Of a stretch of DNA of 64,000 nucleotides, positions 2,498-52,446 are shown one piece after another (positions within the stretch are counted from its first letter, which is position 1; each line of letters begins with the position of its first letter). Origin of the DNA: Firmicutes bacterium CAG:194 (GTDB lineage Bacteria; Bacillota; Clostridia; Lachnospirales; Lachnospiraceae); contig HF995233.1 of assembly GCA_000432915.1 (NCBI GenBank), positions 100,637-164,636 on the forward strand. Reading direction: 5' to 3'. The notes under the pieces are model-generated. The model saw nothing but the letters and a program-made list of their open reading frames with translations, searched no databases and was not told the DNA's origin. Both the position numbers and the translations under genes were made by a program.

Positions 2498-3817
<1,320 letters not shown>

Positions 3818-4121: not shown

Positions 4122-4740
4122 AAAAGTGGGTATTATGGGTGGGACTTTTGATCCAATCCATTATGGGCATCTGATACTCGCCCAAAATGCACTGGATACC
4201 TTTTCTCTGGATGAGATTTTGTTTGTTCCGAGCGGAACACCATGGCTGAAGGAGTCTACAAAGGTATTATCCAAAAACAAGCGTGTTTCCATGACGGGCA
4301 TGGCAATCGAGGATAATCCTGATTTTGCATTATCTACCATCGAGATTGACCGGGAGGGAAATTCCTATTCCTACGAAACGGTGGAAGAACTTAAAAGAAT
4401 GCAGCCAAAGACAGATTTTTATTTTATCATGGGAGCTGATTCTCTTCTGGAAATTGAACGCTGGAAGCACCCTGACCGTCTGATGACAGAATGCACATTA
4501 CTTGTTGCAGTGCGGGATGATTGCGACAGAGAAGGACTTGAAAAGCAAATTATTTATCTGACAGACAAATATCAGGCAGATATCAAAATCCTGCCTGCAA
4601 ACAGAATAGATATTTCTTCTACGAAAATCCGTCGGATGATCCGGGAAGGGAAATCTGTCCGCTATATGCTGCCTGATCAGGTCATCCGTTTTATACAGAA
4701 GAATCATTTATACCGGCAGGAAACCTCATCTGAAAAATAA
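4105..4740 (+). CDS. nadD: Nicotinate-nucleotide adenylyltransferase
   Basis: GIMGGTFDPIHYGHL motif. The start is TTG at 4105 with an AAAGGAG RBS 9 nt upstream, and it overlaps the yhbY stop. Confidence 0.88.
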   Translation: MSCQNKKVGIMGGTFDPIHYGHLILAQNALDTFSLDEILFVPSGTPWLKESTKVLSKNKRVSMTGMAIEDNPDFALSTIEIDREGNSYSYETVEELKRMQPKTDFYFIMGADSLLEIERWKHPDRLMTECTLLVAVRDDCDREGLEKQIIYLTDKYQADIKILPANRIDISSTKIRRMIREGKSVRYMLPDQVIRFIQKNHLYRQETSSEK

Positions 4741-5825: not shown

Positions 5826-6443
5826 TTAGCGATATAACCGGAATACACCGAATACTTTACCAAGAATATCACAATCATCTACAATGATCGGATCCATGGT
5901 ATCATTTTCCGGCTGCAGACGGACATGTCCCTGTTCTTTATAAAATGTCTTAACCGTTGCGGAATCATCCACAAGTGCAACGACCATATCTCCGTTTCTG
6001 GCTACATTGGTACGCTCTACAAAGATCTGATCCCCACTGAAGATACCTGCATTGATCATACTGTCGCCCTTTACCTTTAAAATAAAAGTCTCTGCATTTG
6101 GCACCATATCGACCGGAACCGGAAAATATCCTTCTATATTCTCTGCAGCAAGTATAGGCTGACCGGCAGCAACAGTGCCAATAATCGGAATGCTTGTCAT
6201 TTCATTTCTGACAAGCTGAAAGCTGTCATCGCAGATCTCAATCGCACGCGGCTTAGTCGGATCACGGCGGATATAACCGTTCTTCTCGAGCGTTTCCAGA
6301 TGCGCATGCACGGAAGAAGTGGATTTCAGATGCACTGCCTCGCAGATTTCACGAACAGCCGGCGGATAACCTTTCTCTAAAATCTGTTCCTTTATATATT
6401 CCAAAATTTCTGACTGTTTCTTACTGATCTTTCCGTTAGCCAT
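5826..6443 (-). CDS. lexA: LexA repressor (SOS regulator)
   Basis: N-terminal wHTH ([26 protein letters not shown]), the VAAGQP cleavage site and the S24 peptidase domain. Confidence 0.95.
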
Positions 6444-7105: not shown

Positions 7106-8155
7106 TTAAGGCTCCCTGAGTTTTACTGCCTTTGCCGCCCGTCTGCGGTTTTCTTCCTGCTGGGCAGCATAGTGCTTCCTCGTTGTATTGACATCCTTAT
7201 GACCGAGTACATCTGCCACCAGATAGATATCACCTGTTTCACGGTACAGATTCGTACCATAGGTACTGCGCAGCTTATGTGGTGTGATCTTTTTTAAAGA
7301 GGTTACTTTTGAGGCATATTTCTTGACCAGCTTTTCTACAGCACGGACGCTGATCCGCTTATTCTGCATGGATAGAAACAGTGCATCTTCATGCCCCGTA
7401 GCAGCTGCCTTATGGGTGCGTTCATCCCAGTAGTCGAGGAGCGCATCCTCTACCTCTTCTCCAAAATATACAACCGCTTCATAACCGCCTTTTCGCACGA
7501 TCCGGATCCCTCCGTTTTTGAAATCTACATCATTCAGATTCAGCCCTACGCATTCCGAAACACGGATTCCCGTACCAAGCAGAAGAGTAAGAAGTGCCAG
7601 ATCCCTTGTTTTGGTAACTCTGTGATACCTTTTTTCTGTCTCGGTCAGTTCTTCCCCGTTTTCCACCAGCTCTAAGAGCGTAGCAACTTCATCGGGATCT
7701 AACCGGATAATTTCTTTTTCATGCAGCTTAGGCATAGGAACAAGTGCTGCCACATCCTTTTCGATCAGTTCGCTTGTATAGAAATAGTGATACATACTAC
7801 GCAGACTTGCCAGCTTTCTGGACTTTCCGCGTTCATCATTGCGATATTCTTTGTCATCCTTATAATATAACTCCAGATAATCCAGATATTCCTCGATATC
7901 CTCCCTGCCAAGCTGATCGAGCAGGCTGAGCGGATACTCTTGAATCGGCGTTCTTCTCAGGGCATTGTTATTTTGCTGGATAAATTCAAAAAAGATACGA
8001 AGATCCAGTGCATAGCCCAATCTTGTCCGTGTGGAAGTCGTATTTTCAATCCCGCGGAAAAACTGCTTGCAGAACTTCGGAAGCTCCTGCAGGACTGCCC
8101 GCATCTTTTCGATATTTTCTTTATTCACCTGATCATGATAACTGTGTTCGCTCAT
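7106..8155 (-). CDS. Tyrosine site-specific recombinase (XerC/XerD / phage integrase family)
   Basis: C-terminal catalytic R-H-R-Y region: HKLRSTYGTNL...LGHKDVNTTRKHY. Confidence 0.8.
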   Translation of the reverse strand: MSEHSYHDQVNKENIEKMRAVLQELPKFCKQFFRGIENTTSTRTRLGYALDLRIFFEFIQQNNNALRRTPIQEYPLSLLDQLGREDIEEYLDYLELYYKDDKEYRNDERGKSRKLASLRSMYHYFYTSELIEKDVAALVPMPKLHEKEIIRLDPDEVATLLELVENGEELTETEKRYHRVTKTRDLALLTLLLGTGIRVSECVGLNLNDVDFKNGGIRIVRKGGYEAVVYFGEEVEDALLDYWDERTHKAAATGHEDALFLSMQNKRISVRAVEKLVKKYASKVTSLKKITPHKLRSTYGTNLYRETGDIYLVADVLGHKDVNTTRKHYAAQQEENRRRAAKAVKLREP

Positions 8156-10320: not shown

Positions 10321-10488
10321 GGAACACTGGATACGATCCAGTAAATTACAAGCTGCCAGCTGTAGATAGAGCCAATTTGCAGCCGCAACTATTCGATAAA
10401 CTATTCTTTTGCGAATAGTTCTATTTACCTCAATACACACTCTCTTATGCGTCAAGCTGCTATATTTTATCAACGGAGGGACTTATTT

Positions 10489-10713
10489 ATGACTGCAGAT
10501 ACATTTGCAATTTTATGTACAATTGCACCTTTTGCAATACTTCTCATTGGTGTTACCCATCCAGGGCTCCCAAAAAAACACCTTCGGAAAAAATTTACCA
10601 TAATTCGAAACAGTTCTGTAAAATCAAAGCACAAAAAGCGAGTTAAAAAATCTGCCAAACCAAAATATAAATTAAAAGATCTGAATAATGTTGATCTGAC
10701 AAAGGCTATGTAG
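10489..10713 (+). CDS. Small putative membrane protein (TM helix plus a lysine-rich tail)
   Basis: GGAGGG RBS 9 nt upstream of the ATG. Hairpins flank it at about 10381-10416 and 10741-10769. Confidence 0.25.
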   Translation: MTADTFAILCTIAPFAILLIGVTHPGLPKKHLRKKFTIIRNSSVKSKHKKRVKKSAKPKYKLKDLNNVDLTKAM

Positions 10714-10784
10714 ACGCATGTTGGGAAGAACTTTCGTCAAAGAAATAAGCTCTGCTATACACAGAGCTTATTCTCTTACCTTAT

Positions 10785-32018: not shown

Positions 32019-32146
32019 GTAACATCCTCCCATTTCATTGCAGGCATTTCTCTGCTTTTACCTATTTGCAATTATTATATGATGTCGGGGTCAAAAGCCC
32101 CGGCTTTGATGCTCACGTGGTTTTAGACCTTTTGACTCTGGCATCA

Positions 32147-33385: not shown

Positions 33386-33515
33386 CATGTTCTCCTGTAA
33401 GTGATAATTTTATATAACATGTATAGTATAGCAAATTTGGCAGGGTAAGTAAACTTTTTTGACAGTGCATGTGAAAAATGATAAGATGTGTTTCACAAAG
33501 AAAGGATGGTTTGTT

Positions 33516-33788
33516 ATGACAAAAGAAGATCAGGCATTTTTAGATCGTATCACTGCCTATATCAACAAGAAATCGATCAACAGTGATCCGAATCAGCGTG
33601 CGACCGCTACTACCTCGCAGCAGATTGATAAATTGAAACCGATATTTATGAAGATTGCCAATGAAGACGGATGTGAGATTTCCGACGTGCTCGTCCGTTA
33701 TATGGATCTTTCCTCGCAGGCTGCGGCAGAGAAAGCTGCCAGAGAGCAGGCGGATACCGTGGATCTCGGCTCGCTACTTAAAATGTAA
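33516..33788 (+). CDS. Hypothetical small protein (90 aa)
   Basis: AAAGGATGG RBS. No recognisable motif. Confidence 0.3.
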   Translation: MTKEDQAFLDRITAYINKKSINSDPNQRATATTSQQIDKLKPIFMKIANEDGCEISDVLVRYMDLSSQAAAEKAAREQADTVDLGSLLKM

Positions 33789-33815
33789 TCATTCCATAAA
33801 GTATCATATACTCTA

Positions 33816-33985
33816 AATGGGTATTTCCTATAACCGCAATCACACTTGACTCCCCTGCGATTTGTCAAAGCACATATTGCACGTGCTCCGGCCGCTAGAA
33901 AGCGTAGCGGTCTCTCCGCACGGCAAGTGCTTTGCAAATCTCGGTCGTCTACGCTATCGATTGCTCATTATAGGAAATACCCATT
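33816..33985 (-). repeat. Palindromic hairpin-forming repeat element, copy A (MITE/REP-like, inverted orientation)
   Basis: Conserved ends (AGCAATCGATAGCGTAGACGACCGAGATTT ... AAATCGCAGGGGAGTCAAGTGTGATTGC on the minus strand). Outer 18-bp inverted repeat AATGGGTATTTCCTATAA. Confidence 0.6.
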
Positions 33986-34066
33986 TTCTGTATATATTTA
34001 ACTGTGTAAAAAAAGATAAAATAATAATGACTGCAATATTTATTATTAATATTGATAGAACAATAA

Positions 34067-34238
34067 AGCAGGAAGCCCTATATAAAAAGCAATCGATAGT
34101 GTAGCCGACCGAGATTTATCGTTCCCTTTACCGGAGCGAGCGATCACAAAGCTTTTACGTGACGGGAGCCCGGTAAAATGGGAACGAGATAAATCGCAGG
34201 GCAGGCAAACGTGATTGCTTTTATATAAGGCTTCCTGC
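34067..34238 (+). repeat. Palindromic hairpin-forming repeat element, copy B
   Basis: AAGCAATCGATAGTGTAGCCGACCGAGATTT ... AAATCGCAGGGCAGGCAAACGTGATTGCTT. Outer 26-bp inverted repeat GCAGGAAGCCCTATATAAAAGCAATC. Confidence 0.6.
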
Positions 34239-34279
34239 GTATTATTTTACACCTTAAATATTACAATTTATAAAAACAT

Positions 34280-35443
34280 CTATTTTACCACACGAACACG
34301 GAACACGCCTTCGATGTTCTTCAACTTCTCGACGATATCCTCTGTCACAGGCTGCTCTAAATCCATCATGGTATAGGCAACTTCACCTCTTGATTTGTTC
34401 ATCATATCGGTGATGTTCATGCCCTGATCTCCAAAAGTTGCTGTAAACTTTGTGATCATGTTGGCAACATTTTTATGGAAAATTGCTACACGGCTTGCCT
34501 GTGCGCAGACGCCCATGTCAAGAGCCGGATAGTTTACACTGTTTTTGATATTGCCGTTTTCCAGATAATCGGAAAGTTCTGCAACAGCCATGACTGCACA
34601 GTTATCTTCTGATTCTTCTGTGGAAGCGCCAAGATGCGGTGTTACGATACAGCCCGGCTGACCTGCAACAGTCGGATTTGCAAAGTCCGTCATATATCTC
34701 TTTACCTTACCGGATTCGATTGCTTTTAATAAAGCAGGCTCATCCACTAAGATGTCACGTGCATAGTTCAGGATCACTACGCCATCCTTCATCATGGAAA
34801 TGGCTTCTGCATTGATCATGCCCTTTGTAGAATCCAGAAGCGGTACGTGAATCGTGATGAAATCACATTCTGCGTAGATCTCTTCTACGTTTAATACATG
34901 CTTTACGCTGCGGTTCAGGTTCCATGCTGCATTAACGGATAAGTATGGATCATAGCCATATACTTCCATACCCAAATGGATCGCTGCATTTGCAACCTTG
35001 ACACCGATCGCACCAAGACCGATGATACCAAGCTTTTTGCCTGCGATCTCAGTACCTGCGAATTTCTTCTTTTCCTTTTCCTGTGCTTTTGCAATGCCTT
35101 CGTCATCTTTATCGGATTTTACCCATTCGATACCACCAACGATATCACGGCTTGCAAGCAGCATACCTGCCAGCACAAGCTCCTTTACACCATTGGCATT
35201 TGCACCGGGTGTATTGAATACGACGATACCTTTTTCCGCACATTTATCAAGCGGGATATTATTGACACCTGCACCGGCCCTTGCAACAGCAAGCAGCTTT
35301 TCAGGTAACTCCATATCATGCATGGCTGCACTTCTGACTAAAACACCATCCGCTTCCTTGATATCTTCTGTTTTTTTATAATCTGCACCGAAACCGTCCA
35401 GTCCAACCTGCGCGATCGGGTTTAAACAATAATACTGAAACAT
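34280..35443 (-). CDS. serA: D-3-phosphoglycerate dehydrogenase
   Basis: D-2-hydroxyacid dehydrogenase motifs (GLGAIGVKVA) plus a C-terminal ACT domain, 387 aa. Confidence 0.85.
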   Translation of the reverse strand: MFQYYCLNPIAQVGLDGFGADYKKTEDIKEADGVLVRSAAMHDMELPEKLLAVARAGAGVNNIPLDKCAEKGIVVFNTPGANANGVKELVLAGMLLASRDIVGGIEWVKSDKDDEGIAKAQEKEKKKFAGTEIAGKKLGIIGLGAIGVKVANAAIHLGMEVYGYDPYLSVNAAWNLNRSVKHVLNVEEIYAECDFITIHVPLLDSTKGMINAEAISMMKDGVVILNYARDILVDEPALLKAIESGKVKRYMTDFANPTVAGQPGCIVTPHLGASTEESEDNCAVMAVAELSDYLENGNIKNSVNYPALDMGVCAQASRVAIFHKNVANMITKFTATFGDQGMNITDMMNKSRGEVAYTMMDLEQPVTEDIVEKLKNIEGVFRVRVVK

Positions 35444-44007: not shown

Positions 44008-44137
44008 ATTCTACCTCCATAACATATCCCGCTTCATAAGTTACAGGAGCGTTTTATGTAATAGAAACGAAGTTTCCCATTACATAAAAAGGGCAAATAA
44101 ATGCATTCATTTATCTGCCCCGGTTCTATTTTCGTTT

Positions 44138-44458
44138 TTATTCTGCGTCAGGCTTTTCTACCTGTACGATTGCTGTCTTATTCATTGGGATACGACAGTT
44201 TTTGTTATTACCGAACTCAACGATCACAGTACCCTGGTCATCATTGATATCAATTACCATTCCGTAAAAACCACTTGTTGTTAAAATGCTGTCGCCGATC
44301 GCAAGCTGGGAAAGCATAGCGTTCATTTTCTTCTGTTCCTTCTTCTGCGGACGGATCATTAAGAAATAGATAAAACCGACGATAAATACAAGATATACAA
44401 CCAGGACCACACCTGACATTGAATTTGCTGCTGCTGTTTCAGATAATAAAATACCCAT
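44138..44458 (-). CDS. yajC: Preprotein translocase subunit YajC
   Basis: Single TM then VIDINDDQGTVIVEFGNNK. A terminator hairpin plus T5 follows at about 44085-44125. Confidence 0.85.
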   Translation of the reverse strand: MGILLSETAAANSMSGVVLVVYLVFIVGFIYFLMIRPQKKEQKKMNAMLSQLAIGDSILTTSGFYGMVIDINDDQGTVIVEFGNNKNCRIPMNKTAIVQVEKPDAE

Positions 44459-44544
44459 GTTTCTTCCTCCAGATTAAAATGTACATAAAATATGCTAACA
44501 GTTATCATACACAAATTAGACGAATCTTGCAAGACTATTTTTGC

Positions 44545-51671: not shown

Positions 51672-51926
51672 AAGCAGGATTCACCTATAATAAGCAATCG
51701 ATAGTGTAGCCGACCGAGATTTGCAAAGCCCTTGCCGTGCTCCGGCCACCACGCTTTTTGGTATATGTAACGGATTTACACAGTAAATCCGTTATGTAGC
51801 CTCTGTGCATCGGCGAAGCCGATTTCACATGCACAGAGGTTCGAGTGGCTGGAGCACATGCAATAGGTGCTTTTCGCAAATCGCAGGGTAGGCAAACGTG
51901 ATTGCGTTTATAGATGGATCCTGCTT
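51672..51926 (+). repeat. Palindromic hairpin-forming repeat element, copy C (longest, with nested internal hairpins)
   Basis: Same conserved ends as copies A and B (AAGCAATCGATAGTGTAGCCGACCGAGATTT ... CAAATCGCAGGGTAGGCAAACGTGATTGC) with outer inverted repeats. Confidence 0.6.
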
Positions 51927-51936
51927 TTATAAAATT

Positions 51937-52446
51937 TTATGCATAATTCCCGCAATGTAAAACCGGGGTTTTGTGATCTGTCTGCTGGAGGGATTTCTGC
52001 ACATCGATCACGCGCTGGTTGCTGCTTCCCTTCCAGCGAAGCTTTGTATCGCGCAGCTCTTCCACATATTCGCCGTCTACCAGTACATTGACATATTTCA
52101 TGACCGGATCATGCATCACGTTTTCCCAGACATCACCGGTGTAAAGCCAGATTGTCTTATTTGGAAATTTCTCGTGGATCTCTGTCATAAGAGTACGGAC
52201 TCCTACACGGTTTGCTGCATGCAGTGGGTCTCCGCCGGAAAATGTAATTCCGGAAATATACGGTTTGGAAAGCTGGTCAAAGATCTCTTCCTTTGCCGCA
52301 TCATCAAATTCCAGTCCGCCATTCGGATCCCATGTCACAGGATTCTGACAGCCCTTGCAGCAATGGCTGCAGCCTGCCACCCATAATACAACTCGCAGAC
52401 CATCGCCATTCAGCATATCATCTTTGGTAATATTATGATATCTCAT
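51937..52446 (-). CDS. nrdG: Anaerobic ribonucleoside-triphosphate reductase activating protein (radical SAM)
   Basis: GCSHCCKGCQNP cluster motif. Confidence 0.9.
   Translation of the reverse strand: MRYHNITKDDMLNGDGLRVVLWVAGCSHCCKGCQNPVTWDPNGGLEFDDAAKEEIFDQLSKPYISGITFSGGDPLHAANRVGVRTLMTEIHEKFPNKTIWLYTGDVWENVMHDPVMKYVNVLVDGEYVEELRDTKLRWKGSSNQRVIDVQKSLQQTDHKTPVLHCGNYA

Follow-up and report, generated by a model that had tools for sequence, protein, structure and literature searches.

Palindromic DNA repeats at the tips of terminator-like hairpins in a narrow group of gut Lachnospiraceae

Small palindromic repeats have been well studied in Proteobacteria and in a few pathogens but have hardly been described in the dominant gut Clostridia. 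The Correia/NEMIS elements of Neisseria, RUP and BOX of Streptococcus pneumoniae and ERIC of the enterobacteria are non-autonomous, intergenic elements of 100-200 bp with inverted-repeat ends; they exist in long and short variants and are co-transcribed with their neighbors, yielding long RNA hairpins that can be processed by RNases. The repeat considered here is found three times in a stretch of 64,000 nucleotides from Firmicutes bacterium CAG:194 (Lachnospiraceae; contig HF995233.1), referred to below as the window: two copies lie between serA and a convergent open reading frame (ORF), and one lies downstream of nrdG. Like the REP/BIME and REPIN sequences associated with RAYT (TnpA-REP) in Gammaproteobacteria, it is a short extragenic palindrome at gene 3' ends, forms long hairpin doublets, is non-coding, occurs in tens of copies and is inherited vertically at orthologous sites. 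In REPs, a 5' GT[AG]G precedes a short imperfect palindrome of their own (PMC6006769). GTAG is likewise present in both conserved boxes of most copies of the present repeat, some 5' boxes having GCCG, GCAG or GACG instead, but a box folded on itself gives only a 6-bp stem with a 17-18-nt loop. Whereas a REPIN consists of two inverted REPs, the boxes here are same-strand direct repeats placed on opposite arms of one hairpin. Other differences are that the element is nested in a terminator stem, that its host is a Firmicute, and that no RAYT was found near the copies (1.45 Mb searched, a weak test). Regarding the Clostridia, a survey of Y1 transposases names them only as a group in which the IS200-type subclass 1.1 is strongly represented (PMC6006769).

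Compared with the bacterial miniature inverted-repeat transposable elements (MITEs), the repeat has no recognizable target-site duplication or parent insertion sequence (IS), its conserved part is an asymmetric internal loop and not a pair of perfect terminal repeats, and terminator-like stems consistently carry it at their tip. It also resembles the attC sites of integrons and the folded attP(+) hairpin of CTX phage, as in both the strands of a hairpin rebuild a pseudo-symmetric protein-binding region with conserved mismatches and a variable terminal cap, 3' of genes. Unlike attC, however, its consensus sequences contain no R''/R' boxes (RYYYAAC ... GTTRRRY), there is neither a cassette array nor an adjacent integrase, and the copies are dispersed after housekeeping genes. 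With bidirectional Rho-independent terminators it shares a GC-rich stem base, an A-run and a T-run, and a location directly after stop codons, but here the "loop" is a conserved, structured insert of 130-215 nt present at about 21 sites. In how it works, the element is most like the REPIN/BIME and Correia/ERIC types, although its boxes are direct and not inverted repeats and no RAYT, recognizable target-site duplication or parent IS was found.

The three copies belong to a previously undescribed family of palindromic DNA repeats, of about 130 or about 210 bases, which is located at the tips of terminator-like hairpins in a narrow group of gut Lachnospiraceae. An earlier note on this DNA, made from its letters alone, had described three copies of a multi-copy non-coding element with conserved ends and a variable core; the three copies are present, the positions given for them were accurate (Table 1) and the general description holds. 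Copies A and B stand head-to-head in the serA/109-aa ORF spacer. Copy C, 17.6 kb away, belongs to a long form, its tip being enlarged by a two-hairpin module of 82 nt, and its outer stem and 3' box lie 12 and 32 nt downstream of nrdG, respectively. As the note had proposed, each copy folds as one long hairpin, with energies of -84, -90 and -133 kcal/mol for A, B and C and z-scores of -10.9 to -13.0 against shuffled sequences. The outer inverted repeats reach 89% complementarity over 28/28 nt in copy A and 95% over 20/20 nt in copy B. The 29-nt 5' box GCAATCGATAG[T/C]GTAG[C/A]CGACCGAGATTT occurs three times in the window and the 28-nt 3' box AAATCGCAGGGnAG[G/T]CAA..GTGATTGC twice (at most 3 mismatches), and neither was matched in 100 dinucleotide-preserving shuffles of the window.

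Table 1. Window positions of the three copies, of their parts and of the genes and other features discussed in the text
Feature	Position	Strand	Remark
Copy A, whole hairpin (short form)	33817-33984	-	directly 3' of the 109-aa ORF
Copy A, outer stem ATGGGTATTTCCTATAA / TTATAGGAAATACCCAT	arms 33817-33833, 33968-33984	-	
Copy A, 5' box GCAATCGATAGCGTAGACGACCGAGATTT	33936-33964	-	
Copy A, variable inner hairpin, type GCAAAGCAC...	33864-33935	-	
Copy A, 3' box AAATCGCAGGGGAGTCAAGTGTGATTGC	33836-33863	-	diverged; read directly from the sequence
Copy B, whole hairpin (short form)	34068-34238	+	directly 3' of serA
Copy B, outer stem GCAGGAAGCCCTATATAAAA / TTTTATATAAGGCTTCCTGC	arms 34068-34087, 34219-34238	+	
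Copy B, 5' box GCAATCGATAGTGTAGCCGACCGAGATTT	34089-34117	+	
Copy B, variable inner hairpin, type ATCGTTCCC...	34118-34190	+	
Copy B, 3' box AAATCGCAGGGCAGGCAAACGTGATTGC	34191-34218	+	
Copy C, whole hairpin (long form)	51674-51924	+	directly 3' of nrdG
Copy C, outer arms	51674-51690, 51908-51924	+	followed by T-run 51925-51928
Copy C, 5' box	51694-51722	+	
Copy C, apical module (optional), 82 nt	51763-51844	+	two hairpins, giving a three-way junction
Copy C, 3' box	51878-51905	+	
serA (D-3-phosphoglycerate dehydrogenase)	34280-35443	-	sole terminator-like structure is copy B
Conserved hypothetical ORF, 109 aa (90 aa as called elsewhere)	33459-33788	+	convergent with serA; sole terminator-like structure is copy A
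nrdG (anaerobic ribonucleotide reductase activase)	51937-52446	-	
Xer-type tyrosine recombinase	7106-8155	-	beside lexA
lexA	5826-6443		
Second, unrelated repeat GATGTCGGGGTCAAAAGCCCCGGCTTTGATGC	32081-32112		between glgB and DUF1015

The family has a narrow host range. Scanned with an exact pattern, a collection of one genome per species (185,579 species) returned 21 matches to the 5' box, confined to three genomes, namely Kineothrix sp. MSJ-39 (Lachnospiraceae), Lachnospiraceae bacterium UBA6452 and one uncultured Roseburia metagenome-assembled genome. The locus flanks in UBA6452 and MSJ-39 are 88-94% identical to the window, which makes the window organism a sister species within this clade. 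A metagenome scan with a degenerate pattern fitting both boxes gave more than 120 stretches among the matches listed (cited below by their L numbers), and all those examined are gut contigs, save one evident chance match on a non-gut contig (L113). With strains encoding identical SerA or NrdG added to the collection, 158 paired copies and 32 orphan boxes were obtained, including 112 distinct full hairpins at about 21 non-orthologous genomic sites; the paired copies are all from the three genomes named above or from gut metagenomes. The note had left open that the termini might be limited to their three occurrences, with no structure-preserving variation; many more copies exist, and their structure is kept.

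No described family accounts for these copies in the collections searched. At gathering thresholds, Rfam models matched only tRNA in the whole window, and a permissive scan of 33700-34350 returned only long-hairpin miRNA models far below threshold (e.g., 41 bits vs 200). Plasmid and phage collections contained no match to the element. Two box-pattern scans of viral contigs gave one true copy (L006), the rest being chance matches; as this contig also carries leuS, it is probably bacterial. The apical-module pattern had no match among viral contigs, and the literature on described Lachnospiraceae repeats, terminator MITEs and invertons yielded nothing specific.

The core is made of a 5' box, a variable hairpin with or without a two-hairpin tip of 82-84 nt, and a 3' box, and falls into two size classes of 127-131 and 207-217 nt. 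Identity between non-orthologous sites drops to background about 8-10 nt beyond the core, so that the repeated unit can be written cTATAATAA[GCAATC ... GATTGC]GTTTATAg, i.e., the core with about 8 nt on either side. The 5' box (consensus AATCG-AT-AGtGTAGcCgAcCGaGATT) and the 3' box (consensus AATCG-C-AGgGTAGgCaAaCGtGATT) match as direct repeats at about 22 of 28 positions and are, in addition, partial inverted repeats of each other; the note had recognized the imperfect inverted repetition of the termini and missed both their direct-repeat nature and the resulting pseudo-symmetry. When folded, the boxes run antiparallel and generate a conserved internal loop with approximate two-fold symmetry. 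In order, the box region displays an AAUC/GAUU stem, a small bulge, a 2-bp helix, a 3x2 loop with GNA opposite RA and, in the center, a helix of 3 bp (G[C/A]C : G[G/U]C), beyond which the preceding elements recur mirrored. Contrary to the note, the interior holds conserved internal loops and is not fully self-complementary. A K-turn or loop-E nature of the 3x2 loops was considered, but their sizes are presumably not those of a K-turn. The inner hairpin can be of several unrelated sequence types, and in the long form the two additional tip hairpins create a three-way junction. The apical module is seen only inside elements, and the short forms that other strains carry at the same site lack it; that it could be an independent element was rejected, since it was never found outside elements and had no viral matches. 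No coding capacity is conserved across the element types, and no copy encloses a gene.

Covariation in this fold is extensive. RNAalifold applied to 54 distinct short forms gave 49 consensus pairs, 33 of them with compensatory changes. Standard pairs are formed in 93.9% of the cells, vs 74.5% after shuffling and 30-43% when the partners are slid, and the covariation score is 0.515, vs 0.155 for the shuffled alignment. Within the box helices, pair 26:158 is CG in 45 forms, GC in 8 and UA in 1, pair 36:150 is UA in 43 and CG in 10, and pair 41:146 is CG in 29 and AU in 24. Seven pairs covary in the apical module. The unpaired nucleotides are also conserved across copies, and selection is required for the same mismatched loops to persist in every copy.

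Regarding the genomic setting, the core is enclosed in an outer stem of 9-25 bp which is specific to each site and has a GC-rich base. At least five T are found within 9 nt after the stem in 44/50 site variants, and in 40/50 this T-run is combined with an A-run (at least 5/9 nt) before the stem, an arrangement that looks like a bidirectional intrinsic terminator. The outer inverted repeats of 18-26 bp noted earlier are real, yet they are not the termini of the element but rather these site-specific, terminator-like stems with A/T tracts. Where both neighboring genes could be resolved, 39 of 40 sites lie downstream of at least one gene, after its stop codon: 18 are between convergent genes, 12 between tandem genes with the element reversed, 9 between tandem genes with the element forward, and one between divergent genes. 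The annotated neighbors are mostly housekeeping genes, e.g., serA, nrdG, tktB, a Na/Pi transporter gene, leuS and ilvA. In relatives whose SerA is 88, 84 or 81% identical, the gene order ykuD-serC-serA / ORF90-DUF1015-glgB is kept, and the serA-ORF90 spacer, 133-190 nt long, contains a plain bidirectional terminator (such as AAAAATCCTTCCC-loop-GGGAAGGATTTTTT or AAAAATATCCCCGGTTC-AAG-GAACCGGGGATATTTTT) and no element. In the window species this spacer measures about 490 nt and contains no terminator-like structure other than the two element hairpins. The position of the terminator is therefore held by the elements, which were gained within the clade. A search of the window for sites orthologous to those occupied in the other genomes matched only the two occupied sites.

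Comparison of strains shows that cores swap or homogenize between sites, invert within the outer stem, and decay via deletion between the direct-repeat boxes or across the hairpin. One core orientation is shared at the nrdG site by the window and many strains, and the opposite one is found in MSJ-39, UBA6452 and some strains whose flanks are 98-99% identical to the window. The orientation also flips at the tktB site and at the site of a 252-aa gene. As the TAA/GT loop flips along with the core, the inversion breakpoints are placed in the outer stem. At a single site, inner-hairpin types differ between strains and both short and long forms can be found, and one identical 130-nt core is present at three different sites in two species. 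Decay is illustrated by solo boxes joined at GATT or other microhomologies (L051, L089, L103, L114, L122, L137, L079), by 5'-truncated copies (L058, L093, L095) and by 3' remnants (L130, L139). In another strain of the MSJ-39 species, the ilvA site has kept the outer stem around a loop reduced to 15 nt of the 3' box; this is a deletion remnant, the relatives have unrelated terminators there, and no pre-insertion stem was found at this site.

Other rearrangements were encountered in the same collection. The nrdG-DUF3793 spacer (L026-L035, 3511-4010) exists as two haplotypes within one species. In the first, the nrdG stop codon is immediately followed by the hairpin and then by about 90 nt of unique spacer; in the second, 66 nt of unique spacer precede the hairpin, whose core has the opposite orientation. 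A larger inversion behind these haplotypes was rejected, the spacers being non-homologous in either orientation. The chimeric elements in L147, L105, L055 and L018 (5530-5707) have outer arms from two different sites, with both reciprocal products present, which implies inter-copy recombination (inversion or translocation) or repeat-induced misassembly. In L037, L041 and L045, a block of about 440 bp comprising both copies and the spacer between serA and the ORF is inverted relative to the arrangement of the window and L036 (window 33789-34279; stretches 4165-4660). These strains encode identical SerA, and the breakpoints lie outside the hairpins, near both stop codons, at a short imperfect inverted repeat (AAATTGTAATAT / ATGATTACATTT).

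A gene can also be found between two copies. In L025 (2294-4187, Kineothrix sp. MSJ-39) and L050 (5532-7232), the gene of a 312-aa hypothetical protein, X, and its leader of about 330 nt are flanked by copies; about 300 bp, i.e., a hairpin and 113 nt, are directly duplicated, the core alone being inverted. UBA6452 and other contigs display tktB, the element and the Na/Pi transporter gene without X. The X family has more than 2,600 proteins, many on contigs of 1.2-1.6 kb, and elsewhere X forms tandem arrays beside PDDEXK_2 genes, without the element. X had no sequence match in Pfam, NCBIfam or the PDB, and its AlphaFold model is of too low a quality (pLDDT 48) for structure searches. Its candidacy as a mobilizer was rejected, since the other X loci lack the element and the repeat flanking them is the terminator of tandem paralogues.

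With a little better than even confidence, the family can be regarded as a lineage-specific, non-autonomous palindromic DNA repeat of the REPIN/MITE-like kind, riding in terminators. A DNA-level repeat is preferred over a sequence-specific RNA because orientation is not conserved and flips, copies are decayed, cores are exchanged and the host range is narrow. According to this reading, the core would ride at the tip of a terminator hairpin whose outer stem and T-tract probably act as the terminator of the adjacent gene, as suggested by position and sequence and supported by the terminator-like setting of the stems and the plain terminators of relatives. The element may be tolerated, or even useful, as a very stable 3' hairpin. 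Its cores may spread and stay alike via recombination or gene conversion anchored in the boxes of about 28 nt, a process in which a putative structure-specific enzyme may also take part. The mismatches and the approximate two-fold symmetry conserved in the box region imply that a dimeric protein recognizes a folded strand; the box loop is its candidate binding site, and the folded strand on which the protein would act may be cruciform or single-stranded DNA or, less likely, RNA.

Several observations weigh against a mobile DNA repeat. Its mobility is inferred from distribution only, no insertion event having been caught, and target-site duplications, a parent IS and a cognate enzyme were all looked for without success. 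The SerA relatives, whose plain terminators are unrelated, provide no pristine empty site bearing the same stem. The copy number per genome is low, about 12 or more, and several sites are common to species with about 90% nucleotide identity, a pattern that suits a selfish set no better than an old one, inherited vertically and possibly functional. In a DNA palindrome, compensatory changes can also come from templated arm-to-arm repair without selection. Finally, on the box-forward strand, distinct G:T wobble events outnumber A:C mismatches (24 vs 13), an excess that may point to one folded strand, perhaps RNA, being under selection.

This last point leads to the strongest of the other explanations, one that is still unlikely, namely a structured RNA motif located in terminators or 3' untranslated regions. 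Its symmetric purine-rich loop would be bound by a dimeric RNA-binding protein or RNase III, and the motif would set mRNA 3'-end processing, stability or termination efficiency. Besides the strand bias and the conserved unpaired nucleotides, the extreme stability of the folds, a covariation that extends to the nested hairpins, the three-way junction of the long form and the constant location at gene 3' ends are all in line with such a role, and at the 18 convergent sites transcription would reach both strands of many copies. However, the tandem contexts are divided between the two orientations, and the same site can flip between strains. The reverse-complement RNA would show different, pyrimidine-rich loops. 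In most copies the G:U-rich strand is in fact opposite to the transcript of the nearest gene. Many copies are decayed, and Rfam provides no family at threshold, only the generic miRNA models mentioned above. The structured non-coding RNA, which the note had offered as an alternative, is weakened by an orientation to transcription that is not conserved and flips between strains.

It is somewhat less probable, and rather doubtful, that the element is a classical cut-and-paste MITE (e.g., TA-targeting in the manner of IS630/Tc1) or an IS200/IS605-type palindrome-associated element, mobilized by a transposase encoded elsewhere in the genome with a preference for terminator hairpin loops. Its ends are indeed imperfect, conserved inverted repeats (TAAGCAATC ... 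GATTGCGTT), and TA steps are placed symmetrically around the conserved unit. The distal stems are unrelated between sites while identical cores occur at different sites, and there are two size classes, as is the case for Correia elements. The MITE interpretation in the note could not be borne out, as neither target-site duplications nor a parent IS with matching ends was recovered: the flanks are inverted and not direct repeats, and a palindromic TA duplication is indistinguishable from the stem. Moreover, no gene-bearing element shares these ends, the 190 boxes all being paired within 600 nt, at a contig end or decayed; nothing similar is present in the plasmid or phage collections; and no empty site was encountered whose matching stem is intact. 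A tblastn search for Y1 HUH transposases (RAYT or IS200) in the 1.45 Mb around the copies, which is a weak test, gave no significant match, a single one at E = 0.05 having no ORF behind it.

A further reading, judged quite improbable, makes the element the substrate of a structure-specific system in which a dimeric protein acting on the folded-DNA loop moves, inverts or exchanges the variable tip. If true, this would represent either a new class of mobile elements in terminator loops or a new hairpin-based system of site-specific recombination in gut Firmicutes. A folded-DNA recombination site like attC or attP(+), in which the direct-repeat boxes rebuild a symmetric core site with a mismatched center and a dimeric recombinase inverts, exchanges or deletes the tip, is the least probable of all. 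It could draw on the antiparallel pairing of identical 5'-to-3' strands, reminiscent of a folded core-type site with covarying box helices, on a tip resembling a variable terminal structure (short, long or branched), and on the inversions, cassette-like swaps, box-to-box deletions and inter-copy chimeras that were all seen; yet ordinary recombination or replication slippage at repeats and palindromes gives the same rearrangements, inversion breakpoints lie in the site-specific outer stems and not in the boxes, solo-box junctions are at short microhomologies, the integron R-box consensus is absent and no recombinase is linked to any copy. The window does encode an Xer-like tyrosine recombinase, but this enzyme (top NCBIfam match XerS, 199 bits, under the cut-off) is 26 kb from the nearest copy, beside lexA and among housekeeping genes, with no link to the elements found. 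It is the only recombinase in the window, where the earlier statement that no transposase is present holds.

Retained as a terminator-borne DNA repeat, the family is a compact, clearly defined example from a human-gut lineage that is very abundant; the SerA and NrdG proteins encoded beside it are indexed in about 3,000-3,600 assembly blocks. The element replaces ordinary terminators after housekeeping genes and is the driver of local inversions, deletions and inter-copy rearrangements in which strains differ. Its precise, symmetric and mismatched structure implies a specific protein partner, the identity of which would show how repeats propagate in Firmicutes or reveal a new RNA- or DNA-hairpin-binding function. 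From a practical point of view, the elements can serve as strain markers, and they cause assembly breaks and inversions in metagenomes.

Some minor observations can be added. The outer arm of copy A (33967-33994, minus strand) contains a promoter-like TATACA-16 nt-TATAAT (10/12 matches) directed into the core. TATAAT is the left-junction consensus at most sites, where the -35 element is mostly absent, and an internal promoter reading into the core was set aside because only copy A has a decent -35/-10 pair. Elsewhere in the window, neither an ORF of at least 110 aa nor a match to Rfam at gathering thresholds is present in the intervals 1377-2524, 10321-10784 and 44008-44544. Another short intergenic repeat, GATGTCGGGGTCAAAAGCCCCGGCTTTGATGC, unrelated to the family, belongs to a palindrome of about 65 nt between glgB and DUF1015 (Table 1) and recurs at non-orthologous loci in the same clade (L127, about 2455-2490, and L161).

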